A DNA stretch of 64,000 nucleotides from NCBI GenBank assembly GCA_902799045.1, contig CADBZH010000011.1, positions 118,434 through 182,433 on the forward strand. The letters run 5' to 3'. The notes beneath the pieces were generated by a model. It saw nothing but the letters and a program-made list of their open reading frames with translations. It made no database searches and was not told where the DNA came from. This stretch comes from an uncultured Eubacteriales bacterium. GTDB lineage: Bacteria > Bacillota > Clostridia > Christensenellales > Aristaeellaceae. Below are positions 10,365 through 56,000 of the stretch, in pieces. A program made the position numbers and the translations under genes. Numbering within the stretch: the first letter of the stretch is position 1; every line of letters begins with the position of its first letter.

Positions 10365-10673
10365 TTACAGCTTGATCTCGATTTCAACGCCCGCCGGCAG
10401 ATCCAGCTTGGTCAGAGCGTCCACCGTCTGGGGGGTCGGCCGCAGGATGTCGATCAGGCGCTTGTGCGTCCTCATCTCAAACTGCTCGCGGGAATCCTTG
10501 TGCTTGTGCGGGGAACGCAGGATCGTCACGATCTCCTTCTCGGTCGGCAGCGGGATCGGGCCGGACACGCGGGAACCGGTGCGCTTGGCCGTCTCCACGA
10601 TGCGCGCTGCGCTCTGGTCGATGATGGAATGCTCATAGGCCTTGAGCTTGATGCGGATCTTCTGGTTTGCCAT
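10365..10673 (-). CDS. rpsJ: 30S ribosomal protein S10
   Basis: The 102-aa form [15 protein letters not shown]... starts at ATG 10673, preceded by AGGAGGAAAGAAC. The longer track ORF (to 10961) is a non-homologous upstream read-through. Confidence 0.96.
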
Positions 10674-10959
10674 GTTCTTTCCTCCTGTTGAACTCATGCA
10701 CACGCTGCCGGGCGTGTTCTGTGTTTTTTTCTCGGCGATTGCTCTCGCAATCGCCGCGCGACGGGCATGAGCTCCGTCGTCCGATTGTCGGACATAGTCC
10801 CCGGAAATTCCCGGCTGTGCGCCTCGCGTTGGTTCAAACGCCAGCCGCGTTTGTGCCGCAACCTTCCGGTTCATCCCATTTGTCACCGCCGTGCCTGGCC
10901 TTCGCAGCCCCGCGATTCCGGCAAAATCGCGCATGGATGCCCCAGCACACAGCTTTATC

Positions 10960-10988
10960 ATTATACCCTATCCGCCCCACAGAATCAA
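10960..10988 (-). promoter_or_regulatory. Candidate sigma-70 promoter of the S10 operon (TTGATT-17-TATAAT)
   Basis: Minus strand has TTGATT (10988-10983), a 17-nt spacer, then TATAAT (10965-10960). This gives a ~280-nt structured leader before rpsJ. Confidence 0.5.
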
Positions 10989-11009: not shown

Positions 11010-11489
11010 TTATTTTTTAGCTAAATGCGTTCCAGTGGTTCGGGATTCGTCATATTTACTGCCTTCTACATCAAGAGTCCCTTGTTTTGTAACTTCCACT
11101 TCTTCAATGTCAGCAGACACTCCATTGACACAGTACATGAATAGCTTTCCTTCGCTGACAATGCCCATCATTATCACACTCAATTCATTCCGTTTGATAA
11201 TCTCCTTTGCATATTGAATGTCGCCTGGTGACAAGCTGTTCACTTTTGGTGGATGAGAATGTACTATACCCCGGAAAGTTATTCCTTCTCGCTTCCATTT
11301 TCCAACAATCTGCTGTATCTGATTGCTGAAACGGCAACCAAATCGTGTGGAGTATGCCTTAAAATCCTTCTCAAAAGCATCAATACCGTCTTCATATGTT
11401 GAACCAATAATGCCACACGTCTCGACCTCGAAGTACTCCAGGGATGCTATTATTGAATCGAAAACACTATCGCAAATTGTAATCTTCAT
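11010..11489 (-). CDS. JAB/MPN (JAMM) metallopeptidase-domain protein, orphan, in an AT-rich cassette
   Basis: EVETCGIIG glutamate motif plus an exact HxHx7Sx2D (HSHPPKVNSLSPGD). ~35-40% GC against >60% in the flanks. Start is uncertain (ATG 11489 or 11522, neither with a clear SD). Confidence 0.8.
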   Translation of the reverse strand: MKITICDSVFDSIIASLEYFEVETCGIIGSTYEDGIDAFEKDFKAYSTRFGCRFSNQIQQIVGKWKREGITFRGIVHSHPPKVNSLSPGDIQYAKEIIKRNELSVIMMGIVSEGKLFMYCVNGVSADIEEVEVTKQGTLDVEGSKYDESRTTGTHLAKK

Positions 11490-11501
11490 ATTTAGATAGA
11501 T

Positions 11502-11550
11502 GGGGCTGTGAAACAAAAGCATTTGAAAAGTGCTTGAGCTTCACAGCCCC
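11502..11550. repeat. Nested hairpin at the GC/AT composition boundary (GGGGCTGTGAA ... TTCACAGCCCC, inner AAGCA/TGCTT)
   Basis: 11-bp perfect outer arms read directly. Lies between the PIN toxin stop and the JAB start, so it may be the terminator of the TA operon. Confidence 0.6.
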
Positions 11551-11565
11551 TTCATCTACCATTTA

Positions 11566-11955
11566 TCACATATAGCGTTCATAGAACTCCGCCACGGTCA
11601 GCACGATCTCATCTCTGGGAAAGTGCTGGCCGTTGCCCGTCACCAGGGGCGCGTGACAGTATCGGGCCACCTCGTAGAACTTGCGGTCCGATTCGTCGGT
11701 GAAAGGCATGTCTGTAATCGGCGGCGCGACCACAGAAAAACCCTGCTTCAAAAGCGGCTCCAGCAGCGCGCTAACTTCCCATTTCTGAAAGCGAAACTTG
11801 GGATAGCGCAGTACCCGCCGGTATTCCTCCACGATACGGAAGTCATAGCACAGGTTGAAGCGGCCCGCGATGGCCGCGCTGACGATGGCTCCCGGCTTGC
11901 GCCCAGGCGACCACAGCGCCGAAACGAGCACATTGGTGTCCAGCACGACGTTCAT
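11566..11955 (-). CDS. PIN-domain toxin (PIN_3/VapC-like)
   Basis: 129 aa, MNVVLDTNVLVSAL... acidic PIN N-terminal motif; 4-nt overlap with the upstream antitoxin. Confidence 0.85.
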   Translation of the reverse strand: MNVVLDTNVLVSALWSPGRKPGAIVSAAIAGRFNLCYDFRIVEEYRRVLRYPKFRFQKWEVSALLEPLLKQGFSVVAPPITDMPFTDESDRKFYEVARYCHAPLVTGNGQHFPRDEIVLTVAEFYERYM

Positions 11956-12233
11956 GGTGTCTCCGTCCCCCGCGCCTCGGCAATCGCCGCCTCGATCTCG
12001 TCATCCGTCATGAAGCCCTCCGCGGCAGCCCGACCGCGCATATTGTTGAAGGCGGCCATAGCCCGCGCCTGACGCACAGCCTGTACAGTCTCATCGAAGC
12101 CGCCTTCCGGAATCTCAATCATCAACGCGGCGGGCTTGCCGTTGTTGGTGATTACGACCTCGCCCCCACGCGCCAGGCTTTCCCACACTGCCTTGGACTC
12201 CGTCCGGAAGTCTCTCACTGAGTAGAACTCCAT
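11952..12233 (-). CDS. Phd/YefM-type antitoxin
   Basis: MEFYSVRDFRTESKAVWESL...VVITNNGKPAALMI. Start chosen at ATG 12233, 8 nt after GGGAGG. The track ORF start (12254) sits inside the predicted -10. Confidence 0.8.
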   Translation of the reverse strand: MEFYSVRDFRTESKAVWESLARGGEVVITNNGKPAALMIEIPEGGFDETVQAVRQARAMAAFNNMRGRAAAEGFMTDDEIEAAIAEARGTETP

Positions 12234-12253
12234 GTACATCGCCTCCCATATCA

Positions 12254-12282
12254 ATGATACACGATTGTGTCCGTTTTGTCAA
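12254..12282 (-). promoter_or_regulatory. Candidate TA promoter TTGACA-17-TATCAT overlapping a short ACAC/GTGT palindrome
   Basis: Minus strand TTGACA at 12282-12277 and TATCAT at 12259-12254, read directly. Confidence 0.5.
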
Positions 12283-12334: not shown

Positions 12335-12363
12335 TAGACAAAACCAGCGCGCAGGTATATAAT
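12335..12363 (+). promoter_or_regulatory. Candidate promoter of the RND gene (TAGACA-17-TATAAT)
   Basis: TAGACA 12335-12340 and TATAAT 12358-12363, in an AT-rich spacer. Confidence 0.4.
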
Positions 12364-12471
12364 TGAAGATATTACGAAAATGCTACAAATGTTTATATAC
12401 GATTCACAATTAGCTGTCATAATAGCTGTAACTGTGAGTTTCCAGACAGAGCGCAAAACGGGAGGCGCGGC

Positions 12472-15400
12472 ATGTTTTCCAAATTCAGCGTCAAAAAGCC
12501 CTACACCGTCATCGTGGGCATCATACTGGTCATCGTGCTGGGCTACATCTCCTTCACGAAGATGACCACCGACCTGCTCCCCAGCATGAACCTGCCCTAC
12601 GTGGTGGTCTACACCAGCTATGTCGGCGCGACGCCGGAGCAGGTGGAATCAGAGGTCACGCGGCCCATGGAGGCCGCCGTCGCCACGCTGACGGACGTCA
12701 AGAAGATCACGTCCTCCTCCCGGGACAACGTCTCCGTCGTCATCATGCAGTTCAACGACGGCGCGAACATGGACACCGCCCTCATCGAATTGAATTCCCG
12801 CCTGGAGCAGCTGCGCGGCGGCTGGGACGACGCCGTCGGCGCGCCCGTGGCCCTGAAGCTGAACCCGGACATGCTGCCCGTGGCGATCCTCTCCGTCTCC
12901 CGGGACGACATGGACATCCTCGCCCTCTCCGAATACGTGGAGGACGAGCTCGTCCCCTCCTTTGAATCGCTGAACGGCGTGGCCTCGGCCAGCGCCTCCG
13001 GCGTCATCGAGCAGCGGGTGGATGTGGTCATCGAACAGAGCCGCATCGACGTGCTCAACAGCGCCATCCTTCGCGACGTGGACGCCGAGCTTGCCGACGT
13101 GGAGCAGGAGCTAAACGACGCCCAGGCCCAGCTGTCCGACGGCAAGCGCCAGCTGGCCCGCGCCCGCCGAACGGCCTTCCAACAGATCGACGACGCCCTG
13201 AACGCCATCGACCAGGGCGAGCAGCAGATCCAGCCCGCCATCGACCAGCTCACCGCCAAGCGCGCCGAGCTGCAGGCCCAGCGCGACCAGCTGGCCCAGG
13301 CCGTCGCGAGCATGGAAGCCCTCGTCAACATGGATGACAACCAGCGCGCCGCTCTCGTTCAGACCCAGCAGGCGCTCGCCGCCCTCAAGCAGCAGCAGTC
13401 GGCGCTCCAGCAGCAGCTGGACGCCCTCGAGGCCACCGGCGAAAGCGATGCCCTCAAGGCCGCCCGCTCCGACCTGGAAAAGCAGGTCGAAGAGCTCACC
13501 CAGCAGCGCGACGCCCAGAAGCAGTACCTCGACGACCTCGCCCTGCTCAGCACCGACGCCCTTCGCGGAGAAATCGAGGGCCTGGAGGCCAGCGTCGCCG
13601 AAAACGAAGGCGCTCTCTCCGACGCCCAGGCCGAGCTCACCCGGATGCAGGGCGAAAAGGCTTCCCTGGAGCGGCGCGTCGCCGAGCTGGAGGCCCTGAT
13701 CCGCGAGGCCGAGGGCACACCCACCGAAGCGCCCTCCGAGGAACCCACGGAAGCGCCCTCCGGGGAGCCCACTGAAGCGCCCTCCGGGGAACCCACGGAA
13801 GCGCCCTCCGAAGAACCCACGGAAGTGCCCTCCGGGGAACCCACCGAAGCGCCCTCCGGGGAACCCACGGAAGCGCCCTCCGAGGAACCCACCGAAGCGC
13901 CCTCCGAAGAACCCACGGAGCAGCCCTCCGAAGCGCCTGCCGGGGAAAACGACGAAAACGCCGATCCCGCGGCCGCCGGCCTCGAAGCCACCCCCAGCCC
14001 GGAGGCGACGCCCGAGCCCACCGACACCCCCGCGCCCGACGCCCTCGCCCTGTTCCCGTTCGCCGCGGCCCAGGCCGAGGAGAGCGACCTGAGCAGCCTG
14101 CGCAGCCAGCTCGACCAGGCCAGGCAGGATCTGGCCGACCTGAACGCCGCCATCGACAGCCAGACCGGCAGCGTCGACGCCCTCAGCCAGACTCTCGCCG
14201 CCGACCGCCAGCGCCTCGCCGCCCGGCAGCAGGCCCTGGCCACGCTGACGGGTGAAAACGAGGACATCGCCTCCCGCCAGGCCGAGGCCCAGCGCCAGGT
14301 CGAAGCCCTCGACGCGCGCATCAGCGCCCTCGGCGAAGAGCTGGACCAGCTGAACGCCTCAACCGCCGACACCGAGGCCCTGCGCCAGCAGTCCGCCGCG
14401 CTCCAGGCCCAGATCGACGCCATCGAAAACTCCGATACCTACAAGGCCGCCGCCCTCGCGTCGGATCCCGAGGCGCTGAACGCCCAGTACACCGAGGCCC
14501 AGGCGGGCCTGGCCCAGCTGGACGCCGGCATTGCCCAGATCGACGGCACGCTCGACAAGCTGAAGAAGGGCATCATCCCCGCCGGCTACATCGACGGCAT
14601 CGACGAGGACACCAAGCTCTCCGACGCCCGCACGCAGCTGGAGGCCGCCCGCAAGCAGGCCGAGAGCGCCTTCTCCAACGCCTCCCAGAAGCTGCGCGAC
14701 GGCGAGGCGGAGCTGGCCAAGGCCCGCAAGGAATTCAACGAAAAGCGCGACGAGGCCCTGGAAAACGCCGGCCTCGACGGCGTCATCACGATGCAGATGG
14801 TCTCCGGCCTCATCGGCGCCCAGAACTTTTCCATGCCCGCGGGCTACGTCTATGACGCCGAAAACGAGCAGGTGCTGGTGCGCGTGGGCGACAAGTTCGA
14901 CACGCTGGACGCCCTGCGCCGCATGAAGCTGTTCGAGCTCGGCCTCGATTCCATCGACGAGGTGCGCCTGCTGGACGTGGCCAGCGTGGAGCTGACCGAC
15001 AACCGCGACGAGGTGTTCACCAAGCTGAACGGCGCGGACGGCATCCTGCTGTCCCTGGACAAGCAGTCCACCTATTCCACCGCCGACGTGGCCAAGACCA
15101 TCCTCGCCCGGGCGGACGCGCTGATGGCCGAAGACCCGAACCTGCACATCGTCGACCTGATGAACCAGGGCGAGTACATCGACATCATCGTCAGCTCCGT
15201 GCTGAACAACCTGCTCACCGGCGGCGGCCTGGCGATCCTGATCCTGCTGCTGTTCCTGATGGACTTCCGGCCCACCGTCACCGTGGCCTTCTCCATCCCC
15301 ATCAGCGTGGTCATCGCCTTCGTGTGCATGTATTTCTCCGGCATCACGCTGAACGTGCTGTCGCTGAGCGGCCTGAGCCTGGGCATCGGCATGCTGGTGG

Positions 15401-17562
15401 ACAACTCCATCGTCGCCATCGAAAACATCTACCGCCTGCACGACGAGGAGGGCGTGCCCCTGCTGCGCGCCTGCGTGGAGGGCGTGAAGTCCGTCTCCGG
15501 CGCGCTGTTCGCCTCGACGCTGACCACCATCTGTGTGTTCCTGCCCATCGTGTTCGTGCAGGGCATGGCCCGCGACCTGTTCGCGGACATGGGCCTCACC
15601 ATCGCCTTCTCGCTGCTGGCCTCGCTGCTGGTGGCCATGACGGTGGTGCCCGCCATGTGCTCGTTCCTGATGCGCCACTCCAAGCCCCACAGGCATCGCG
15701 TCTTCGGCGCGATCCAGCGCTTCTACACTTCGCTGCTGCGCGGGGCCCTGAAGGCGAAGCCGCTGGTGCTGCTGGCGGCGCTGGCGCTGCTGGCCTTCGC
15801 GGCGATGCAGGTGCCGAAGATGGGCATCTCCTTCATGCCGCAGGTCAACTCCCGCCAGATGAGCGCCGACCTCGCCTTCGCCCCGGAGATGACCGACGAC
15901 GACCAGAAGGCGCAGGCCATGGCCATCATGGACGGCATGATGGCGGTGGAAGGCGTGGAGTCCGTCGGCCTGATGGGCGGCAGCGGCGGCATGCTCTCCG
16001 GCCTGTCCGGCGGCAGCGGCATGAGCTATTACATCATGGTGGACGAATCGTCCGGCCGCAGGAACGTCGACATCGCCTCGGAGATCAGCGCCATCGGCGA
16101 ACGCCTCGGCGCGGACCTGTCCGTCCAGGCCAGCACCATGGACATCTCCATGATGACCGGCAGCGGCATCTCCGTGGAGATCACCGGCGACGACATCGAA
16201 ACCCTGCAGTCCATCGCGCTGGACGTGGCGGAGATCGCCCGCGGCACCGAGGGCGTCATCGACGTGGAAGACGGCCTGGAGGACGCCGTGCCGGAGCTGC
16301 GCATCGAGGTGGACAAGGAAAAGGCCATCGAAAACGGGCTGACCACCGCCCAGGTGTTCCAGTTCGTCGCCCAGAAGGTCACCGGGCGCACGGAGATCAC
16401 CCAGGTCACCTTCGACGGCCGGGAATACGGCGTCTTCGTGGCCGACGGCGCCAACGCCGACCTGCGCCCGGAGGACCTGGAGGACCTGGAGATCGAGGTG
16501 GACGGCGAGGAGGAAAACAAGCTGGTGCGCGTGGGCGACGTGGCCGACATCCGTCAGACCAGCAGCCTCTCCACCATCAACCGCGCCAGCCAGCGCCGCA
16601 ACGTGACGGTCACCTTCGGCGTGGCCGACGGCTACAGCGCCAACCATGTCAGCGATGCCTTCGAGGCCCGGCTGAAGGACTATGACGTGCCCGCCGGCTA
16701 CAACGTCACCCTCGGCGGCGAAAACGAGACCGTCATGGCCATCATGCAGGATCTGATCTGGATGGTCCTGGTGGCGATCCTGCTGATCTTCCTGATCATG
16801 GTCGCACAGTTCCAGAGCTTCAAGTCGCCCATCATCGTCATGTTCACGATCCCGCTGGCCTTCACCGGCGGATTGCTTGCCCTGCTGCTCACCGGCATGG
16901 ACCTGTCCATCGTCAGCATGCTGGGCTTCCTGGTGCTCTCCGGCGTGGTGGTGAACAACGGCATCGTGTTCATCGACTGCGTGAACCAGCTGCGCATCGG
17001 CGGCATGGAAAAGAAGGAGGCCCTCATCGAGACGGGCCGCATCCGCCTGCGCCCGATCCTGATGACAGCCCTGACCACCATCCTCGGCATGTCCACCATG
17101 GCCCTCGGCCAGGGCACCGGCGCGGAGATGATGCAGCCCATGGCCGTGGTCTCCATCGGCGGCCTCACCTACGCCACGCTGATGACGCTGTTCGTGGTGC
17201 CCGTGCTCTACGACCTCGTCAACGGCAAGACCATGAAGGCCCGCGAGATCCAGATGATCAAGGAAGCCGCCGGCATGACCGACGACTCCGTGCTGGACGG
17301 CGAGGACCGCATCGATGCCGAAGCCCCGACGGAGCCCGCGCCCGCCGCGGAAGCCCCCGTAGTGGAAGCCCCAGCGGAACCCGCGCCCGCCGCGGAAGCC
17401 CCCGTAGTGGAAGCCCCGACGGAGCCCGTGCCCGCCGCGGAAGTCCCCGCCGCGGAAATCCCGACTGAGCCCGCGCCCGCCGCGGAAGTCCCCGCCCTCT
17501 CGCCCGATTTCAGCTACACGACCCCGTCCAGGCCCCTGCGGATCAAGCTTGGCAAGCGGTAG
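12472..17562 (+). CDS. RND (AcrB/SwrC-like) efflux permease with a giant coiled-coil insertion and a repeat-rich C-terminal tail
   Basis: N-terminus (TM1 plus first porter-like region) and the C-terminal ~790 aa (multiple TM helices, second large loop) resemble the AcrB/AcrD/AcrF family. 1696 aa against ~1000-1100 typical. SD GGGAGG lies 7 nt before the ATG. Confidence 0.85.
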   Translation: MFSKFSVKKPYTVIVGIILVIVLGYISFTKMTTDLLPSMNLPYVVVYTSYVGATPEQVESEVTRPMEAAVATLTDVKKITSSSRDNVSVVIMQFNDGANMDTALIELNSRLEQLRGGWDDAVGAPVALKLNPDMLPVAILSVSRDDMDILALSEYVEDELVPSFESLNGVASASASGVIEQRVDVVIEQSRIDVLNSAILRDVDAELADVEQELNDAQAQLSDGKRQLARARRTAFQQIDDALNAIDQGEQQIQPAIDQLTAKRAELQAQRDQLAQAVASMEALVNMDDNQRAALVQTQQALAALKQQQSALQQQLDALEATGESDALKAARSDLEKQVEELTQQRDAQKQYLDDLALLSTDALRGEIEGLEASVAENEGALSDAQAELTRMQGEKASLERRVAELEALIREAEGTPTEAPSEEPTEAPSGEPTEAPSGEPTEAPSEEPTEVPSGEPTEAPSGEPTEAPSEEPTEAPSEEPTEQPSEAPAGENDENADPAAAGLEATPSPEATPEPTDTPAPDALALFPFAAAQAEESDLSSLRSQLDQARQDLADLNAAIDSQTGSVDALSQTLAADRQRLAARQQALATLTGENEDIASRQAEAQRQVEALDARISALGEELDQLNASTADTEALRQQSAALQAQIDAIENSDTYKAAALASDPEALNAQYTEAQAGLAQLDAGIAQIDGTLDKLKKGIIPAGYIDGIDEDTKLSDARTQLEAARKQAESAFSNASQKLRDGEAELAKARKEFNEKRDEALENAGLDGVITMQMVSGLIGAQNFSMPAGYVYDAENEQVLVRVGDKFDTLDALRRMKLFELGLDSIDEVRLLDVASVELTDNRDEVFTKLNGADGILLSLDKQSTYSTADVAKTILARADALMAEDPNLHIVDLMNQGEYIDIIVSSVLNNLLTGGGLAILILLLFLMDFRPTVTVAFSIPISVVIAFVCMYFSGITLNVLSLSGLSLGIGMLVDNSIVAIENIYRLHDEEGVPLLRACVEGVKSVSGALFASTLTTICVFLPIVFVQGMARDLFADMGLTIAFSLLASLLVAMTVVPAMCSFLMRHSKPHRHRVFGAIQRFYTSLLRGALKAKPLVLLAALALLAFAAMQVPKMGISFMPQVNSRQMSADLAFAPEMTDDDQKAQAMAIMDGMMAVEGVESVGLMGGSGGMLSGLSGGSGMSYYIMVDESSGRRNVDIASEISAIGERLGADLSVQASTMDISMMTGSGISVEITGDDIETLQSIALDVAEIARGTEGVIDVEDGLEDAVPELRIEVDKEKAIENGLTTAQVFQFVAQKVTGRTEITQVTFDGREYGVFVADGANADLRPEDLEDLEIEVDGEEENKLVRVGDVADIRQTSSLSTINRASQRRNVTVTFGVADGYSANHVSDAFEARLKDYDVPAGYNVTLGGENETVMAIMQDLIWMVLVAILLIFLIMVAQFQSFKSPIIVMFTIPLAFTGGLLALLLTGMDLSIVSMLGFLVLSGVVVNNGIVFIDCVNQLRIGGMEKKEALIETGRIRLRPILMTALTTILGMSTMALGQGTGAEMMQPMAVVSIGGLTYATLMTLFVVPVLYDLVNGKTMKAREIQMIKEAAGMTDDSVLDGEDRIDAEAPTEPAPAAEAPVVEAPAEPAPAAEAPVVEAPTEPVPAAEVPAAEIPTEPAPAAEVPALSPDFSYTTPSRPLRIKLGKR
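13720..13935 (+). repeat. 9 x 24-bp in-frame tandem repeat encoding PTEAPS(E/G)E
   Basis: Units read directly (cccac[c/g]gaagcgccctcc[g/a][g/a]gga[a/g]); aa 417-488 of the RND protein. Confidence 0.95.
17320..17499 (+). repeat. 4 x 45-bp in-frame tandem repeat encoding EAP(T/A)EPAPAAEAPVV in the RND C-terminal tail
   Basis: Direct reading of nucleotide and protein repeats. Confidence 0.9.
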
Positions 17563-17597: not shown

Positions 17598-17743
17598 GGG
17601 GCGCCGTTGCGCCGCCCGCCCAAAACAAGACCCGGATTGCCACGTCGGGACATTTCATGTCCCTCGTCGCAATGACGTGTTCGATCAGGAATCGTCGTAC
17701 GTCATTGCGAGGAGAACCCGAAGGGTTCGACGTGGCAATCCGG
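17598..17743. repeat. Composite palindromic element: GC hairpin (A) plus an inverted pair of B units (CCGGATTGCCACGTCG...CGCAATGAC / GTCATTGCGAGG...GACGTGGCAATCCGG)
   Basis: A 17598-17621; B(-) 17632-17677; B(+) 17701-17743. The same architecture recurs at 38177-38298, 43410-43544 and 48510-48641, with a single B unit at 24144-24183. Confidence 0.9.
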
Positions 17744-17823: not shown

Positions 17824-19845
17824 CTACTCCCTCTCGAATACCACGCCCGCGTCGCCCTCCGGCCAGACCTGTACGCTCTGGGCATACTGCCCCGGCGACC
17901 CGGCCAGGCTCAGGTACCAGCGTACGCGCCGCGACACATACACATACAGCTCGTTCAGCGTCACCGCGCCGTCGTAGTCCAAGTCGGCGCGCATGGCGGC
18001 CCGCGCCGATCGCTCCAGGCTCCAGCCGCCCGCCTCGCACAGCGCCCGGGCAAACACCGTCGCCATGGCGGATTCCGCGCCCTCGCCGAAGCCGATGCGG
18101 TGGCTGTCCTGCTCCAGCGCGGCGCTGGCGATCACCCGAAAGCGGCTGCCGTTCAGCTGCGCCGGTCCGACGCCGCCGCCGAACACCGCGTCGATGCCCC
18201 GCAGGATATCGTCGGTGCCGCTGGCCCTGCCGATCACGCCGCCGCTGCCGCAGCAGTCGACGACGACCAGGATCTCCCCCGGCACCTCGCCCAGCGCCTG
18301 CGCCAGCTCCGCCGCCGTCAGCACCGAGCCGTCGTACATCCGAAAGGACGTCATGCCGCCCTCGTAATAGCCGTGGCAGGTGATGTAAAACAGCGATACG
18401 TCCCCGTCCCGCGCCTCCCCGAAGGCCTGAGCGATGCCCGCCAGGATGCCGTCGCGGGAGGCGTCCAGCAGCGTGTTCACCCGAAAGCGCGCGCCTCCGA
18501 AGGACAGGCCGGACAGCATGCTGCGCAGCCCGGACACGGAGTTGATCGAGCCCGTGCGCACCGCCGCCACGGTGGAGGCGTAGTTCTGCTCCCCCACCAA
18601 CAGCGCCCGCCAGCGCTTCGGCGCGGGGCCCACCTCCACGTCCAGGGCGTCCGTGACGCCGCCGTCCACGCTGCGCACCGTCACGGTGCACGCGCCCTCG
18701 GCCAGGGCCCGCACCACGCCGCGCCGGTCGATCTCAACGATCCCCTCCGGCTCGGCCGCATAGGTCAGCCGCGGGTCGCTGGCGTTTTCCGGCAGCACCT
18801 CGCACTCGATGGCCGCGTCGTCTCCCACGCTCAGCGAAAGTCGCCGGGAGAGCAGGCTCACGCCCTCCACCGGCACATAGCGCACCGACACCCGGCAGCT
18901 GGCCCAAGCGCCACCCGCCGCGTAGGCGGTGATCACGGCCTCGCCGGCGCTGCGGCCCGTCACCAGTCCCTCGGCGCTCACCCGGGCGGACGCGGGGTTC
19001 GAGCTCTCCCAGTAGACCGGCCCGCCCGAGCCCTCCGGCAAGAGCGCCGCCTCCAGCTGCACACCGGAGCGCCCCGCCACCAGCAGCGCCTCGCGGGAGA
19101 GCGTCACGCTCTCGGCCAGCGCGCCCTCCACCCGCGTCAGCCGCAGGCTGTACAGGCCCGTCGCCCCGTCCAGCGAGGTCAGCCGCAGGCGATAGCGCCG
19201 CCCGGCCTGCGGATCGAAGCTCAGCAGGCACGCGCCGCCCTCGGTGCCCCCGGATTCCGCCAGCAGCGTCCCGTCCTCGTCAAACAGCTGCGCCAGCAGC
19301 CGCACGTCCGTCTCCGCCGGAACGCCGGTGATCGCCACCGTCCGCCCGTCAGGCGACTCGAAGGCATACCAGTGCGCGTCCCCCCGGCGGGCGAAGGCCT
19401 TGGAATACGCGTCCCCTTCGGCGTCCAGCGCCATGGGCATGTCAAAGCACCGGCTCAGCGCGTGGCGGGCGATCTCCAGCCGCGCCGCGCCCTCGCCGGT
19501 CAGGCGCAGGGTGTAGGTCGTTCCCGCGGTCAGGCGCAGGCTCAGCGCGGGCATCGTCCCTTCGCCCTCGCCCACCAGCGTCTGACCCTGCCAAAGCTCG
19601 GCGCGCGCCGACACCGGCCCCTCCCCGACGGGAAACAGCCAGACGTCGTACACGCTGCCGCTGGGAGGCATGAACGTGAACGCCGGCGAATCGCCCAGCT
19701 CCGCCACGGCCAGCTGCCCCGGCTCAAGCGCCACCGGCCCGTCGGCTCCAAAAACGCCCTCCGCGCCCGCGCCGGCGGCCAGCGCCAGCCCCAGGGCCGC
19801 CGCCAGCAACACCAGCGCCCGCAGGCGCGGAAGGATTTGCTTCAT
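17824..19845 (-). CDS. Secreted caspase-like (peptidase C14-type) protein with 2 PPC-like and 2 Big_2-like modules and an EF-hand-like loop
   Basis: Start at ATG 19845 (MKQILPRLRALVLLAAALGLALAAGAGA signal peptide, SD AAGGA). His motif FYITCHG and Cys motif VVVDCCGSGG. DLDYDGAVTLNE matches the DxDxDGxIxxxE pattern. Confidence 0.7.
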   Translation of the reverse strand: MKQILPRLRALVLLAAALGLALAAGAGAEGVFGADGPVALEPGQLAVAELGDSPAFTFMPPSGSVYDVWLFPVGEGPVSARAELWQGQTLVGEGEGTMPALSLRLTAGTTYTLRLTGEGAARLEIARHALSRCFDMPMALDAEGDAYSKAFARRGDAHWYAFESPDGRTVAITGVPAETDVRLLAQLFDEDGTLLAESGGTEGGACLLSFDPQAGRRYRLRLTSLDGATGLYSLRLTRVEGALAESVTLSREALLVAGRSGVQLEAALLPEGSGGPVYWESSNPASARVSAEGLVTGRSAGEAVITAYAAGGAWASCRVSVRYVPVEGVSLLSRRLSLSVGDDAAIECEVLPENASDPRLTYAAEPEGIVEIDRRGVVRALAEGACTVTVRSVDGGVTDALDVEVGPAPKRWRALLVGEQNYASTVAAVRTGSINSVSGLRSMLSGLSFGGARFRVNTLLDASRDGILAGIAQAFGEARDGDVSLFYITCHGYYEGGMTSFRMYDGSVLTAAELAQALGEVPGEILVVVDCCGSGGVIGRASGTDDILRGIDAVFGGGVGPAQLNGSRFRVIASAALEQDSHRIGFGEGAESAMATVFARALCEAGGWSLERSARAAMRADLDYDGAVTLNELYVYVSRRVRWYLSLAGSPGQYAQSVQVWPEGDAGVVFERE

Positions 19846-19880
19846 ATCTTTATCCTTTGTTGATGAGAGCGCAGGATGAA

Positions 19881-19938
19881 GGGAACAGGGAGCAGGAATG
19901 GCCGCTGCGGGCATCTCCCAACTCCTCACTCCTCACTC
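19881..19938. repeat. E-type element: purine-rich arm GGGAACAGGGAGCAGGAATG, then a loop, then pyrimidine-rich CATCTCCCAACTCCTCACTCCTCACTC
   Basis: Near-identical left arm at 31881-31901 and related ACTCC-rich arms at 24224-24290. Confidence 0.8.
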
Positions 19939-24037: not shown

Positions 24038-24302
24038 TGGAGTGTGGAGTGAGGAGTTCCTGTGGAAATCCTTCGGATTTCTCTGATTGATTGGGGAAAC
24101 CGGTTTGCCCCGTGATAGAAATGAACCCCAGGCTCAAACGAACGTCATTGCGAGGAGGGCGCAAGCCCGACGTGGCAATCCGGTTCCCCCGAACCAACAA
24201 ATCCCGCAGGGATTTGCACCGCAACTCCTAACTCCTAACTTCCCCACTTCCAACTCCCCACTCCAACCCCTCGCTCCCAACTCCCCGTGGAGGTGATTAC
24301 CC
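24038..24302. repeat. Cluster of hairpins/repeats inside the rodA-pbp spacer (GGAGTG-rich and ACTCC-rich arms, UUCG hairpin, AAACCGGTTT palindrome, one B unit)
   Basis: Read directly: GAAATCC-TTCG-GGATTTC, B(+) 24144-24183, AAATCCC-GCA-GGGATTT, ACTCC-rich tract 24224-24290. Confidence 0.85.
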
Positions 24303-33563: not shown

Positions 33564-35576
33564 TTGTGGAGGCGAAGGGCAATCGCGCGCGTTTTGTTGG
33601 CGCAGCACGCTGGTTTTTGCTTCGGCGTGCGCCGCGCCGTGGAGACCGCCGAGCGCTCGGCCCCGGCCTTGACGCTGGGCCCCATCATCCACAACCCGCA
33701 GGTCGTGGAGGCCCTGGAGGCGATCGGCGTTCAAAGCGTCCACTCCACGGAGGAGGTTCCCCCGTCCGCGCGGGTGGTGATCCGCTCCCACGGCATCGGC
33801 CAGGGCGCCCACCGGGCGCTGGCGGAGCGTGGCTGCGAGATCATCGACGCCACCTGCCCGTTCGTGCGCCGCATCCACGACATGGCCCGCGCCGCCTCGG
33901 AATCCGGCATGCCGCTGATCGTCATCGGCGAACGGGAGCATCCGGAGGTGCAGGGCATTCTGGGCTGGACGGACGCGCCAGCCTTCGCCGTGATGACGGA
34001 GGAGGATGTCAACGCCCTTCCCCCGCTTCAGGAGGCGCTGGTCGTGGCCCAGACCACCCAGGTGCAGGAGCGCTTTGACGCGCTGTGCGCGCTTCTGAAG
34101 GTGCGCGTCCCCCGCCTGGATATCCACGCCACCATCTGCACCGCCACGCGCGACCGGCAGGCGGAGGTCGTCGACATCGCCCGCCGCGCGGACGTGATGC
34201 TGGTCATCGGCGGGCGGGACAGTTCAAACAGTCGCAAGCTGTACAGGCTCGCTGCTGATATATGCCGCAGGACGTATTTCATCGAATCCGCGGCCGAATT
34301 GGACGGAATCGACATTGCACCGTCCGATGCGATTGGGATTACAGCCGGTGCATCCACGCCGGATTGTATCATTAAGGAGGTTGTTGCAAGAATGAACGAC
34401 ATCGAGAAGAAAGTCACCCCCGAAGAGAACCAGGAACTTGAAGTCATGTCAGAAGAAGCCATTGACAAGACCATAGTTCAAATTCGCCCCGGCCAGATCA
34501 TCACTGGCAAGGTCGAAATGATCACCGACGATGAGGTTTGCGTCAACATCGGCTATAAGTCTGACGGTATCGTAAAGAAATCCGAGCTTTCTTCCACCGA
34601 TGTCAAGGAAGGCGATGAGATCGAAGTCGAGGTCGTCAAGGTCAATGACGGCGAAGGCAACGTTCTGCTTTCCCAGAAGAACATCATCAACCGCAAGGCC
34701 TGGGAAGAGATCTGCGCCAAGGAAGAAGCCGGCGAGTTCGTCGAAGGCGTGGGCAAGGAAGCCGTCAAGGGTGGCTTGCTGGCCGACGTGGCGGGCATCC
34801 GCACCTTCATCCCCGCGTCCCAGCTCTCCCTGCGCTATGTCGAGAAGATCGATGAGTTCGTGGGCCAGCCCATGACGCTGAAGATCATCGAGATCGACAA
34901 GGCCAAGAAGCGCATCGTGGCTTCCCGCAAGGCCGTCCTGATGGCTGAGGAGGCCGAGAAGAAGAAGAAGATCTGGGAGAACCTGGAAGTCGGCACCGTC
35001 GTGAAGGGCATCGTTCGCCGCCTGGCGGACTTCGGCGCCTTCGTGGATATCGGCGGCGTGGACGGCCTGGTGCACGTCACCGACCTCAGCTGGGGCCGCG
35101 TGAAGCATCCCTCCGACGTGGTTTCCGTCGGCCAGGAGATCGACGTGAAGATCCTGAACATCGATCCCGAGCGCGAGCGCATCTCCCTGTCCTACAAGCA
35201 GACCCAGCCCCGCCCCTGGACGGTCGCCGGTGAGAAGTATCCCGTCGGCTCCGTGGTGGAGGGCAAGGTCGTTCGCATCACCACCTTCGGCGCGTTCGTC
35301 GAGCTGGAGCCCGGCCTGGATGGCCTGGTGCACATCAGCCAGTGCGCCCTGACCCGCATCGCGAAGGTCGAGGACGCCGTGAACGTGGGCGACATCGTGC
35401 GCGTGAAGGTGCTGGACGTCAACACCGAAGCCAAGCGCATCTCCCTGTCCATCCGCGAGGTGCTGGAGGACGAGGCGCTGGCCAGCGACGACGGCGAGTA
35501 TGACATCGACGAGATTCCCGCCGAGGAAGAGTACGTCGAGGAAGCCCCCGCTGAGGAAGCTCCCGTCGAGGAATAA
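33564..35576 (+). CDS. ispH: Bifunctional IspH (HMBPP reductase) / ribosomal protein S1 fusion
   Basis: N-terminal HAGFCFGVRRAV IspH domain followed by four S1 repeats (GKV..I..FGAFV). Start is uncertain (TTG 33564 or downstream). Confidence 0.9.
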   Translation: MWRRRAIARVLLAQHAGFCFGVRRAVETAERSAPALTLGPIIHNPQVVEALEAIGVQSVHSTEEVPPSARVVIRSHGIGQGAHRALAERGCEIIDATCPFVRRIHDMARAASESGMPLIVIGEREHPEVQGILGWTDAPAFAVMTEEDVNALPPLQEALVVAQTTQVQERFDALCALLKVRVPRLDIHATICTATRDRQAEVVDIARRADVMLVIGGRDSSNSRKLYRLAADICRRTYFIESAAELDGIDIAPSDAIGITAGASTPDCIIKEVVARMNDIEKKVTPEENQELEVMSEEAIDKTIVQIRPGQIITGKVEMITDDEVCVNIGYKSDGIVKKSELSSTDVKEGDEIEVEVVKVNDGEGNVLLSQKNIINRKAWEEICAKEEAGEFVEGVGKEAVKGGLLADVAGIRTFIPASQLSLRYVEKIDEFVGQPMTLKIIEIDKAKKRIVASRKAVLMAEEAEKKKKIWENLEVGTVVKGIVRRLADFGAFVDIGGVDGLVHVTDLSWGRVKHPSDVVSVGQEIDVKILNIDPERERISLSYKQTQPRPWTVAGEKYPVGSVVEGKVVRITTFGAFVELEPGLDGLVHISQCALTRIAKVEDAVNVGDIVRVKVLDVNTEAKRISLSIREVLEDEALASDDGEYDIDEIPAEEEYVEEAPAEEAPVEE

Positions 35577-38025: not shown

Positions 38026-38298
38026 AAGGTTCTTCACGGAATGTTGTGGGATTGGTATAACGCAGTCTGTAGACGTTGCGCACCGATCCTGCGCTTCGCG
38101 GGCCTGCGGCATTGAGGGTGGTATTCTGCCATGCGTTTCCATGCAGCCCTCAACTTTCCATCAAGAGCCGAAAAAACAGATTGCCACGTCGCTCCTTCGG
38201 AGCTCCTCGCGATGACACTGTGTACGCTTTTTCGCGGTACGCCGCGGTGACGCAGAACGTCATTGCGAGGAGGGCGCAAGCCCGACGTGACAATCCGG
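38026..38298. repeat. Degenerate C/D copy followed by a B(-)/B(+) inverted pair
   Basis: B(-) 38177-38216, B(+) 38259-38298. Confidence 0.85.
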
Positions 38299-43409: not shown

Positions 43410-43544
43410 GGGGCGGCGTTGCGCCGCCCGCCCAAAACGAGGGCCCGGATTGCCACGCCGCTTCGCTCCTCGCAACGACGTACAACCAAGCGTTATCGCA
43501 CTGCGTCATTGCGAGGAACCCTTTAGGCCGACGTGATAATCCGG
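43410..43544. repeat. Composite A + B(-)/B(+) element, same architecture as 17598-17743
   Basis: About 55 nt of near-identity to copy 1 (GGGGCGGCGTTGCGCCGCCCGCCCAAAACGAGGGCCCGGATTGCCACG); extra A-like hairpin near 43370-43395. Confidence 0.9.
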
Positions 43545-53078: not shown

Positions 53079-56000
53079 ATGCCACTGAACAAGTCCATCA
53101 AGAAAGTCCTCATGATCGGCTCCGGGCCCATCGTCATCGGCCAGGCGGCGGAATTTGACTATGCCGGCGCCCAGGCCTGCCGGGTGCTGAAGGCGGCAGG
53201 CGTGAACGTGGTGCTGGTGAACAGCAATCCCGCCACGATCATGACCGACAACGCCCTGGCGGACGAGATCTACCTGGAGCCGCTGACGGTGCAAACCGTA
53301 AAGCGCATCATCGAAAAGGAGAAGCCGGACAGCATGCTGGCGGGCCTCGGCGGCCAGACGGGCCTGACCCTGGCCATGCAGCTGGACAAGGAGGGCTTCC
53401 TCGCCGCCCACGGCGTGAGGCTGATCGGCACCAACGCCGACGCCATCGACAAGGCCGAGGATCGCCAGCTGTTCAAGGACACCATGCAGCAAATCGGCGA
53501 GCCGGTCATCCCGTCGGACATCGCCGGTGACGTGGACGCGGCCCTCGCCATCGCGGACAGGATCGGCTATCCCGTCATCATCCGCCCCGCCTTCACGCTG
53601 GGCGGCACCGGCGGCGGCGTGGCCCACGATGAAGCACAGATGCGCCTCGCCGCCCGCACGGGCCTGGACGCCTCCCCCATCACCCAGATTCTGGTGGAAA
53701 AGTACATCGCGGGCTGGAAGGAGATCGAGTTCGAGACCATGCGCGACGCCGTGGGCAACTGCATCGCCGTTTGCAGCATGGAGAACGTCGACCCCGTGGG
53801 CATCCACACCGGCGATTCCATCGTCGTCGCCCCGGCGCTCACGCTGTCCAACAAGGAATACCAGATGCTGCGCAGCGCCTCGCTGAACATCGTGGGCGCC
53901 CTGGGCATCGTGGGTGGCTGCAACTGCCAGTTCGCCCTGAACCCGGACAGCTTTGAATACGCCGTCATCGAGGTCAACCCCCGCGTCAGCCGCTCCTCCG
54001 CCCTGGCCAGCAAGGCCACCGGCTATCCCATCGCGAAGGTCACCACCCAGATCGCCCTGGGCTACACGCTGGACGAGATCAAGAACGAGATCACCGGCAA
54101 GACCTGCGCCTGCTTCGAACCGGCGGTGGACTACATCGTCGTGAAGTTCCCCAAGTGGCCCTTCGACAAGTTCACCACCGCCTCCCGCAGACTCGGCACC
54201 CAGATGAAGGCCACCGGCGAGGTGATGAGCATCGCGCCCACGTTTGAGATGGCCCTGATGAAGGCCGTGCGCGGCGCGGAGATCAAGCTGGACACGCTGA
54301 ACAAGCCCGCGAGCGACGATCGGCCCGTGCTCGAGCGCCTGGCCGACGGCGACGACAACCGCATTTTCACCGTGTTCGAGGCCATCAAGGCTGGCGTCGC
54401 CATCGACGCGATCCACGCCATCACGAAGATCGACCGCTGGTTCCTGTACAAGCTGAAGCACCTGGCGGACTTCGAGGCGAAGATCGCGGGCGGCCTCACC
54501 GACGAGGACTATCGCCTCGGCAAGCAGCTGGGCTATCCGGACGCCGCCCTCGCCCGCCTCTCCGGCAGGAAGGACCTGCCGAAGTGTTCCTCCACCTACA
54601 AGATGGTGGACACCTGCGCCGCGGAGTTCGACGCCGAGACCCCCTATTTCTACGAGACCTTCGACGCCGCCTGCGATTCCCGCGGCTTCCCCCGCAGCGG
54701 AAAGCCCGTCATCATGGTGCTCGGCTCCGGCCCGATCCGCATCGGCCAGGGCATCGAGTTCGACTATTCCAGCGTGCATTGCGTGTGGACGCTGAAGCAG
54801 CTGGGCTACGACGTGGTGATCGTCAACAACAACCCGGAGACGGTCTCCACCGACTATGACACCGCCGACCGCCTCTACTTCGAGCCGCTGACCGACGAGG
54901 ACGTCATGCGCATCATCGAGGTGGAGAAGCCCGTGGGCGTGGTGGTGGCCTTCGGCGGCCAGACCGCCATCAAGCTCACCCAGCATCTGGACCGGGCGGG
55001 CGTCAGGATCCTCGGCACCAGCGCCGAGGGCATCGACATCGCCGAGGACCGCGAACGCTTCGACGCACTGCTGGAGCAATTCAGCATCCGCCGCCCGAAG
55101 GGCATGGGCGTGCGCACGCTCGACGAAGCGCTGAACGCCGCGAACGCGCTGGGCTATCCGGTGCTGCTGCGGCCCAGCTATGTCATCGGCGGCCAGAACA
55201 TGACCATCGCCCACGACGATCACGACGTGACCACCTACATGAACCGCATCCTCTCCGGCGGCATCGAAAACCCGGTGCTGGTGGACAAGTACATGCCCGG
55301 CGTGGAGCTGGAGGTGGACGTCATTTCCGACGGCACGGACGTGCTGATCCCCGGCATCATGCAGCACGTGGAGCGCGCCGGCGTGCACAGCGGCGATTCC
55401 ATCGCCGTCTACCCGCCCTTCAGCCTCGACGACGCCATGATGGACACCGTGGTCAGGAGCAGCGAAAAGCTGGCCCTGGCCCTGGGCACGAAAGGCCTGG
55501 TGAACATCCAGTACCTGGTCTATCACGGCGAGCTCTACGTCATCGAGGTCAACCCCCGCGCCTCGCGCACCATCCCCTACATCTCCAAGGTCACCGGCGT
55601 CCCGATGGTGGACCTGGCCAGCCGCGTGATGATCGGCCAGCCCCTGAAGGGCCTCGGCTACGGCACGGGCCTGTACAAGACCCCGCCCTACTGCGCCGTG
55701 AAGGTGCCGGTATTCTCCTTTGAAAAGCTCTCCGACGCCAACAGCTATCTCGGCCCGGAGATGAAGTCCACCGGCGAGGTGCTGGGCATCGGCAAGAACC
55801 TGTCCGAGGCGCTGTTCAAGGGCCTGGTCTCCTCCGGCATCCACCTGCCCCTCCCCGGCGAGAGGACGGGCGTGTTCATCTCCGTGGATGAGTACGACTA
55901 CCTGGAGGTCGTGGATGTGGCCCGCCGCTTCAGCGACCTGGGCTGCGCCCTCTACGCCACCGAGGGCACCGCCGAGACCATCCGCACCCTGGGCATCCCG

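Follow-up and report, generated by a model that had tools for sequence, protein, structure and literature searches.

A stand-alone RND permease of an uncultured Clostridia bacterium with a long coiled-coil hairpin inserted in its docking subdomain

The 64,000-nt stretch of DNA analysed here (hereafter the window; GenBank assembly GCA_902799045.1, contig CADBZH010000011.1, forward strand, positions 118,434 to 182,433) comes from an uncultured bacterium of the Aristaeellaceae (Clostridia) and carries a gene for a 1696-aa resistance-nodulation-division (RND) permease. Within the first extracytoplasmic loop of this protein, a single intramolecular antiparallel two-stranded coiled-coil hairpin is inserted in the docking subdomain. 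We tentatively regard the product as a stand-alone proton-driven exporter, whose stalk would cross the cell wall and act as an exit guide or spacer that is part of the pump itself, and we give this reading a probability of roughly 0.45. An initial annotation of the same DNA, made from the sequence alone, had already proposed a long helical stalk on an otherwise ordinary pump, and its single claims are taken up below with the results that bear on them.

The Pfam profile search matched ACR_tran (PF00873) with E = 2.4e-197 and 658 bits against a cutoff of 28. The match was split in two stretches: it broke at profile position ~197 and was taken up again at aa 772, from where it ran to aa 1583 (profile positions 198-1020) without further insert. 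Solved structures matched by the core were MdtB, ZneA, CusA and AcrB. In the best of them, MdtB (9lyq_B), residues 16-199 corresponded to aa 6-188 and residues 229-1023 to aa 794-1584. Because both the Pfam and the MdtB alignments skip aa ~195-770, about 575 residues are without counterpart in ordinary pumps; these ~560-575 extra residues stand in place of ~30 residues (MdtB ~200-228). The initial annotation had described both ends of the protein as an ordinary AcrB-type permease and had asked whether the ACR_tran alignment splits around aa ~195-770; the description agrees with what we found, and the alignment does split there. In NCBIfam, the nearest models were the generic 'RND_permease_2' and the CusA/CzcA subfamily, both far under their cutoffs (512 vs 1250). 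The topology was that of an RND permease with large extracytoplasmic loops after TM1 and after TM7, TM1-TM6 (TM, transmembrane helix) being read from an AlphaFold2 (AF2) model and TM7-TM12 from the continuous Pfam alignment. As TM1 was helix 11-31 and TM2 helix 899-928 in that model (TM2-TM6 lay within 899-1112), the first loop measures ~867 aa, close to the ~875 aa claimed at first. The second loop has no insert since the ACR_tran alignment is continuous there.

The insertion lies in DN, the N-terminal docking subdomain, in the loop that joins its two short helices. DN spans residues 181-273 in AcrB, and profile position ~197 and MdtB 200-228 both fall inside the subdomain. It makes up the membrane-distal part of loop 1, shapes the exit funnel and, in Gram-negative pumps, is turned towards the adaptor and TolC. 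The docking subdomain had been named as the rough site of the insertion beforehand, and it was indeed the site. The part before the insert (aa 1-194) had a family conservation of 0.82, the returning arm rejoined DN at AGLDGVIT, and the DN hairpin loop region NFSMPAGYVYD...VRVGD was conserved in the family. Two relatives, P0243 (1054 aa) and P0252 (1025 aa), were without insert: two short helices with a loop between them led from the preceding strand to the AQNFSMPxGY hairpin, and the span between the anchors GVAS and AQNFSMPAGY was 47-57 aa, compared with 614 aa in the window protein. Judging by their sequences, these two proteins show the ancestral, insert-free state.

Several lines of evidence indicated that the insert is a coiled coil. 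Its two arms (~220-233 residues each) were rich in A, Q, L, E, D and R, with less than 1% Pro. Hydrophobic periodicity was weak in the single sequence and a family-averaged profile was needed; averaged over 37 family members, hydrophobicity recurred most strongly every 3.45-3.6 residues over the greater part of both arms. Heptad positions a and d were hydrophobic (0.5-0.9) in seven of the eight helical segments, the exception being 324-358 (a = 0.27, d = 0.85). In the pooled heptads, a was L33/I16 and d was L42/A24, positions e and g were polar with E, Q and R most frequent, and b, c and f were Ala-rich (25-31%). Such a pattern is that of a canonical two-stranded coiled coil. The AF2 model of aa 1-1200 gave helices at 191-285, 289-321, 324-358 and 361-414 in arm 1, and at 540-593, 599-652, 655-663, 666-698 and 716-765 in arm 2, where a small beta element occupied 701-715. 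When aa 175-800 were modelled with a 68-sequence alignment, the confidence (pLDDT) of the arms was raised to 85-96. Foldseek searches with the latter model returned long antiparallel intramolecular coiled coils, namely Rad50, enterococcal PrgA (6z9l), condensin and the MukB and Smc arms; the matches were weak (E 1.8e-3 to 5e-3, identity 10-12%, over 595-823 columns), and with the best of them (PrgA, Rad50, SMC/MukB) a fold type is shared, not homology. The aa 1-1200 model retrieved RND cores only, and the TM-scores were low, owing to the bad modelling of its truncated core.

The pairing of the arms was also seen in coevolution, which was measured as mutual information with average product correction on 127 non-identical long-form inserts (effective number 39). 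Inter-arm signal formed a single ridge along the antidiagonal at i+j = 951-965 (about 955). Of the top 40 inter-arm pairs, 11 fell in this band vs 2.3 expected (p = 1e-5); of the top 200, 30 did so vs 11.5 expected (p = 1.5e-6). Both p-values are before correction for 431 bands, and the best band in parallel register was much weaker. The coevolving pairs extended from 229-735, close to the base, to 407-548, close to the tip; the arms therefore pair in antiparallel register over their full length. Heptads, arms and register together show the insert to be one hairpin, an antiparallel two-stranded coiled coil formed within the molecule. The earlier description of two heptad-like Q/A/L/E/D/R-rich arms, forming an antiparallel hairpin tens of nanometres long, thus found support from the heptads, coevolution, AF2 and fold matches. 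With ~220 paired residues and a rise of 1.5 Å, the rod would measure roughly 30 nm if fully extended. Arm 1 has short breaks at about aa 286-288, 322-323 and 359-360, and because the helix breaks are at matched positions in both arms, the rod is segmented and may bend.

Between the arms lies a disordered tip. A 24-nt repeat in 8.9 copies (13719-13931) encodes PTEAPS(E/G)E, which accounts for the nine copies counted initially. The central 115-122 residues were 23% Pro and 23% Glu, and the tip matched the Pfam PT repeat (33.3 bits vs a cutoff of 26.2), as a PT-type linker. In the family alignment its conservation was 0.29 and its gap fraction 0.31. Within this variable region one patch only was conserved, a motif (aa 523-536) at the distal end where arm 2 begins, in which F530 is hydrophobic family-wide and A533 and A535 are invariant. 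A second conserved element, the knob of arm 2 (aa 699-716), has nearly invariant P703, G705, G709, D711, D713 and T714. Opposite the knob lies the G249/P255 kink of arm 1, and the pairs 254-699 and 261-698 coevolve. Pfam and NCBIfam searches with the insert of the window protein and five homologues gave sub-threshold coiled-coil matches only (SMC, Rad50, MscS_porin, ATG16) and no dedicated family. A PDB profile search with the return arm and DN gave nothing below E = 0.09; a match to OprM in that search (E = 0.19) was noise.

A repeat-driven misassembly or a chimeric open reading frame (ORF) might produce such a protein, and the two short tandem repeats within the ORF are of the kind whose copy number a short-read assembly could misjudge. 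However, an independent contig in the ENA (L001), which overlaps 25 kb of the window and differs from it by six single-nucleotide polymorphisms and a 61-bp indel, carried the same ORF with the same repeat copy numbers, its pump protein being identical save for S956T. Furthermore, at least 120 clusters (90% identity) from many metagenome-assembled genomes (MAGs) and assemblies shared the architecture, and the arms were conserved, in frame and coevolving. An artefact is therefore highly improbable, and the misassembly against which the initial annotation had cautioned can be set aside.

These long-form clusters had 54-76% identity to the window protein over near-full coverage and lengths of 1639-2451 aa; dozens of MAGs carried the architecture, and homologues were named in the databases only as 'efflux RND transporter permease subunit'. 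One genome per GTDB species was scanned for motifs found specifically in the return arm and at the DN junction, and 163 species genomes matched. Matches of at least 50% identity came from uncultured gut and rumen Clostridia (RUG and RGIG MAGs, Candidatus Faecivicinus, Candidatus Pullichristensenella, Aristaeellaceae), with complete proteins of 1442-1994 aa. At 27-39% identity the hosts were Lachnospiraceae (Blautia, Fusicatenibacter, Oliverpabstia, Hespellia), Ruminococcus, Oscillospiraceae and Acutalibacteraceae, with proteins of 1244-1417 aa. Shorter hairpins at the same site occurred in over 100 clusters (50% identity) from Lachnospiraceae, Ruminococcus and Oscillospiraceae; these short forms kept the base motifs ...LxDAQxQLxxGK... 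(outward) and ...AQNFSMPAGY (return) and were usually without the PT tip. In the 50%-identity library, about 130 of the 150 best representatives were 1200-1650 aa long, and proteins of ordinary length appeared only near 35% identity. The distance from anchor to anchor was bimodal (200-450 aa and 550-900 aa). With its long stalk and PT tip, the window protein thus stands at the far end of a large Clostridia subfamily. The initial annotation knew of no insert of this length in a Firmicute RND protein. That statement stands for the searchable literature, where no description was found; as a statement of rarity it fails, given the number of long-form clusters.

The long-form arms were nearly free of indels (gap fraction 0.01), and the 191-aa segment at aa 640-830 was gap-free in 36 of 37 long-form members. 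The tip, in contrast, varied from 3 to 531 aa in relatives and was absent in P0122. Arms of almost constant length, together with a tip and tails that are free to vary, point to selection on stalk length. Two further approaches to arm length gave less. Covariation of arm length, with the tip located by Pro-rich windows, gave a noisy result (Pearson r = 0.44, Spearman 0.15; by this method the two arms differed by no more than 45 aa in 80% of proteins) and was not relied on. Gap mapping in L052 and P0124, two proteins of intermediate length, suggested matched distal losses in both arms and is unreliable, because low-complexity coiled coils align poorly.

Genes for membrane fusion proteins (MFPs, the periplasmic adaptors) and outer membrane factors (OMFs) were looked for by their Pfam families. 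None was found within ~10 kb either side of the pump gene in the window, nor at any of ten loci in all (±10 kb at four long-form loci including the window, nearest neighbours only at six short-form loci). A tripartite RND system, with adjacent adaptor and OMF genes, was thus found neither here nor at the nine homologue loci, and the earlier remark that no adaptor or outer-channel gene is adjacent extends to these relatives. The further suggestion of a fused adaptor did not hold in the sense of descent, the protein having neither an MFP domain nor similarity to one. The likeness is one of form: the hairpins of AcrA, EmrA and HlyD are likewise antiparallel two-stranded a/d coiled coils that extend an efflux pump off the inner membrane, that of EmrA measuring 127 Å (PMC4158417). 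In contrast to the MFPs, the window pump has no lipoyl, beta-barrel or membrane-proximal domains and no detectable sequence similarity to them, and it would bear three hairpins, covalently part of the permease, where MFPs supply six per pump. Membership in the MFPs was rejected, with no MFP family matched and the PDB profile search as given above.

The window also contains wall-related genes, SpoIID, FtsW/SpoVE and a penicillin-binding protein (PBP), and the host is therefore a spore-forming Firmicute. We infer a trimeric state, the orientation of the stalk and its role in export. In RND pumps DN is the face farthest from the membrane; the stalk should therefore project outwards, entering and crossing the peptidoglycan of an apparently single-membrane Clostridia host. 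Were the pump trimeric, as its relatives are, the exit funnel would be ringed by three hairpins, which would replace, as a built-in part, the adaptor and the outer channel of Gram-negative pumps. They would act as a strut or guide of fixed length by which a way out across the wall is maintained and the acidic tip is brought to the cell surface; the match of the tip to the PT linker repeat is in keeping with an extracellular place. Amphiphilic or lipidic compounds would be expelled by the core at the expense of the proton gradient. By wall dimensions that are general figures for Gram-positive bacteria and not those of this organism, a ~30 nm stalk on a ~7 nm periplasmic headpiece could traverse the wall.

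The heptads also bear on whether the stalk might form a closed conduit. Three hairpins could pack as a six-helix barrel with substrates crossing the wall via its lumen, an arrangement that has been put forward for MmpL5 and MmpL10. In its favour, the architecture parallels that of the MmpL tube, and efflux by MmpL5 requires its coiled coil; the insert lies on the rim of the exit funnel, the length of the arms is strictly conserved, and Ala at b, c and f could permit close lateral packing. However, this Ala richness may only reflect a GC content of 65-70%, as low-GC relatives have polar outer positions. Hydrophobic residues were confined to a and d, with E, Q and R prevailing at e and g, whereas the MmpL5 barrel has type I/II heptads and a lumen lined with Met (PMC12501195); the arms here have three Met (arm 1) and none (arm 2). 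The heptads appear to fit laterally associated two-stranded hairpins better than a closed hydrophobic tube, and we consider the conduit distinctly unlikely. A role as a spacer is still plausible.

The conserved motif of aa 523-536 and the knob are also what a stalk outside the substrate path might carry, one which trimerises the pump, anchors or positions it in the wall, or displays the tip for partner binding or as a receptor. The coiled coil of MmpL10 drives oligomerisation, long Gram-positive stalks of the PrgA type, which the insert resembles in fold, present distal domains, and the SpoIID, FtsW/SpoVE and PBP genes are in the same window. In contrast, the gene neighbourhood was not conserved among relatives, the tip was hypervariable and disordered in most members and lacking altogether in P0122, and AcrB-type pumps trimerise without any such stalk. 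A stalk serving as a scaffold only is thus rather unlikely.

Several observations weigh against an exporter with a stalk through the wall. The AcrB-type proton relay (D407, D408, K940) was only partly present: TM4 reads D977-N978, both invariant in the family, and TM10 reads VVNNG, with Asn where MdtB has the Lys equivalent to AcrB K940. The D-N pair of TM4 and the lack of Lys in TM10 held for the whole clade, the insert-free relatives P0243 and P0252 included. Since the canonical relay is incomplete by these residues, proton coupling may differ from that of AcrB. The four breaks per arm could let the rod bend or fold back. One long-form family member, P0037, was without 47 aa of arm 2, including the IIPGG...DEDT knob, with arm 1 unshortened; this may reflect natural variation, with a stalk that bulges or is shorter, or else a fault of the assembly. 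As to a role as a conduit, the polar e and g positions and the very few Met of the arms give no sign of a lumen in the sequence. Finally, the neighbourhoods of three other long-form and six short-form members all differed, and such unconserved neighbours offer no clue to the substrate of the pump.

Among these neighbours, TetR, MarR and VanZ genes adjoined some short-form members, an adjacency usual for drug or toxin efflux pumps. VanZ-family genes were found directly 5' of the pump gene in two unrelated members (L073, L002), a short-form protein of Fusicatenibacter and the long-form P0070. There may be a weak, recurrent link of VanZ, TetR and MarR genes to the pump.

The pump shares with the AcrB/MdtB/CusA-type (HAE-1-like) permeases the full-length core match, the 12 TM helices, the two large loops and the docking regions DN and DC, and it retains the Asp of TM4, the RLRPILMT motif of TM11 and the DN hairpin loop. 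It differs from them in the ~560 extra residues of DN, in the absence of an adaptor or outer-channel gene nearby, in D-N for D-D in TM4 and in the missing Lys of TM10. Stand-alone AcrB-like pumps of ordinary length, about 1050 aa, are SwrC and FemT. SwrC/YerP of B. subtilis (surfactin) and FemT of S. aureus (lipid homeostasis) are single-gene pumps of single-membrane hosts (bioRxiv 10.64898/2026.08.10.744025). They resemble the window pump in standing alone, and their reported substrates are lipopeptides or lipids. They were described as close to Gram-negative pumps with a coiled coil unmentioned, and by that description they are set apart from it (bioRxiv 10.64898/2026.08.10.744025).

A close functional parallel was the one named in the initial annotation, the coiled-coil inserts of mycobacterial MmpL proteins, which are indeed reported for MmpL4, MmpL5 and MmpL10 (PMC12501195, PMC12183618). 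In MmpL5 and MmpL10 the inserts serve to trimerise and to reach across the wall (PMC12501195; PMC12183618), and the 13-nm tube of MmpL5 was called 'unique' in 2025 (PMC12501195). Like the window pump, these are RND permeases with an extracytoplasmic antiparallel hairpin that is proposed to cross the wall, and they have no TolC-like partner. However, the MmpL insert is in periplasmic domain 2 (the second loop) and measures 196-255 aa and 10-14 nm, whereas that of the window pump is in DN of loop 1 and, with ~560 aa and ~30 nm, is two to three times longer. MmpL proteins have barrel-type heptads with the Met-lined lumen, a disulfide-bonded tip and a need for MmpS; the window pump has a/d-only heptads and a disordered tip, and no MmpS-like gene was found among the neighbours of its gene. 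Nor does it belong to the MmpL (HAE-2) family, given that the insert is in loop 1 and that the MMPL model gave a 27-bit partial match to the C-terminal TM bundle. Because loop and subdomain, length, heptad type and tip all differ and an MmpS partner is lacking, the two inserts appear to have evolved independently.

How pumped compounds pass the thick wall of single-membrane bacteria is a question rarely asked, and the AcrB-like pumps of Firmicutes such as SwrC and FemT are puzzling in having kept a docking domain with no known partner. In many Clostridia it is this very domain that has been extended into a long stalk of constrained length. No description of a coiled-coil RND protein in Firmicutes or Clostridia was found in the searchable full-text literature, a body that leaves subscription-only papers outside. 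The stalk would be a second, independent case after MmpL5, in another phylum and at another insertion site, and would point to a general principle of envelope-spanning helical extensions on RND pumps. A stronger form of the proposal, in which three DN-borne hairpins form a trans-wall duct of fixed length (15-33 nm) that conducts or guides substrates throughout this gut and rumen Clostridia family, seems to us unlikely. If it were true, wall crossing would have evolved independently of both the MFP/TolC systems and the MmpL tube, and this would be the first such structure known in single-membrane Firmicutes. The pump family is abundant in MAGs from human, livestock and rumen guts and may bear on the tolerance of commensals to bile acids, lipids and antimicrobials.

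Table 1. Positions in the window of the pump gene, its expression signals and the segments of its product.
Feature	Position	Strand	Basis
Whole gene, 1696-aa RND permease bearing the coiled-coil stalk	12472..17562	+	ORF call, Pfam, MdtB alignment
Putative sigma-70-like promoter, TAGACA-17 nt-TATAAT	12335..12363	+	consensus match only, 11/12 positions
Ribosome-binding site GGGAGG, 6 nt before ATG	12460..12465	+	read off sequence
aa 1-194: TM1, porter subdomains, first strand and helix of DN	12472..13053	+	MdtB alignment, AF2 secondary structure
Arm 1, outgoing helix, aa 195-415	13054..13716	+	AF2 helices with pLDDT up to 96, heptads, coevolution with arm 2
Tip, aa 416-537: disordered acidic Pro/Thr/Glu/Ala-rich loop	13717..14082	+	repeats, Pfam PT, pLDDT <50
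Motif at distal start of arm 2, aa 523-536, ALALFPFAAAQAEE; family pattern F..A.AE	14038..14079	+	family alignment
Arm 2, returning helix, aa 538-770	14083..14781	+	AF2, heptads, coevolution
Non-helical knob in arm 2, aa 699-716, KGIIPAGYIDGIDEDTKL, predicted small beta hairpin	14566..14619	+	conservation, AF2 strands
aa 771-1600: remaining DN, TM2-TM6, second large loop, TM7-TM12; ordinary RND core	14782..17271	+	Pfam, MdtB alignment
Cytoplasmic C-terminal low-complexity tail, aa 1601-1696	17272..17559	+	repeat finding, composition

The positions of the gene and its parts are given in Table 1. The pump gene is preceded by a 217-nt AT-rich spacer (GC 0.40-0.51) with one promoter-like match, where 0.7 such matches were expected in shuffled sequences. 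Its upstream neighbour is divergent (the Phd antitoxin of a Phd/PIN toxin-antitoxin pair, 11952-12254, - strand) and its downstream neighbour convergent (a Big_2 surface protein, 17824-19929, - strand). An AT-rich promoter region of its own and a convergent next gene had both been noted initially, as had four 15-aa repeats in the cytoplasmic tail; the latter correspond to a 45-nt repeat in 3.9 copies (17320-17494) encoding EAPxEPAPAAEAPVV. In relatives (P0053, P0097, P0105, P0114, P0120) the C-terminal tails were hypervariable low-complexity repeats, of up to ~800 aa and rich in P, Q, G and Y, for example many copies of GAQPGYVPPVNPAAN or PQGY-type units.

A scan 3' of the pump gene found no intrinsic terminator and instead a dispersed palindromic element of ~110 nt (17632-17743), between the convergent RND and Big_2 genes. 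Its 16-nt outer arms were 100% complementary, a further 16-nt inverted repeat was nested within, and the spacer holding it had an RNA fold z of -7.4. The outer arm occurred at four loci of the window (17632-17743, 24168-24183, 38176-38298, 43445-43544), with seven matches vs 0.14 expected. The element looks like a REP- or MITE-like intergenic repeat and may serve as a bidirectional terminator. Its only match in Rfam, to a plant microRNA model, was spurious because it was below threshold (30.5 bits vs a cutoff of 84).

Between the S10 ribosomal operon and the pump gene, a low-GC island (11010-12254, - strand; GC 0.40-0.47 vs ~0.65 in the flanks) contained the Phd/YefM antitoxin, the PIN toxin and a JAB-domain ORF, the last being absent from the ENA gene call of the near-identical contig. 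The longest ORF for S10 was 198 aa (10365-10961, - strand). Since the S10 domain fills only aa 103-197 and the ENA call has 102 aa, the true start is probably internal. Elsewhere in the window, a continuous 1341-aa ORF (53079-57104, + strand) encoded a carbamoyl-phosphate synthase large chain that is complete and, C-terminal to it, a diaminopimelate epimerase with two DAP_epimerase domains at about aa 1100-1331; the ORF appears to be a CarB-DapF fusion. A 670-aa ORF (33564-35576, + strand) joined IspH/LytB to four S1 RNA-binding domains, a fusion that is common in Firmicutes.

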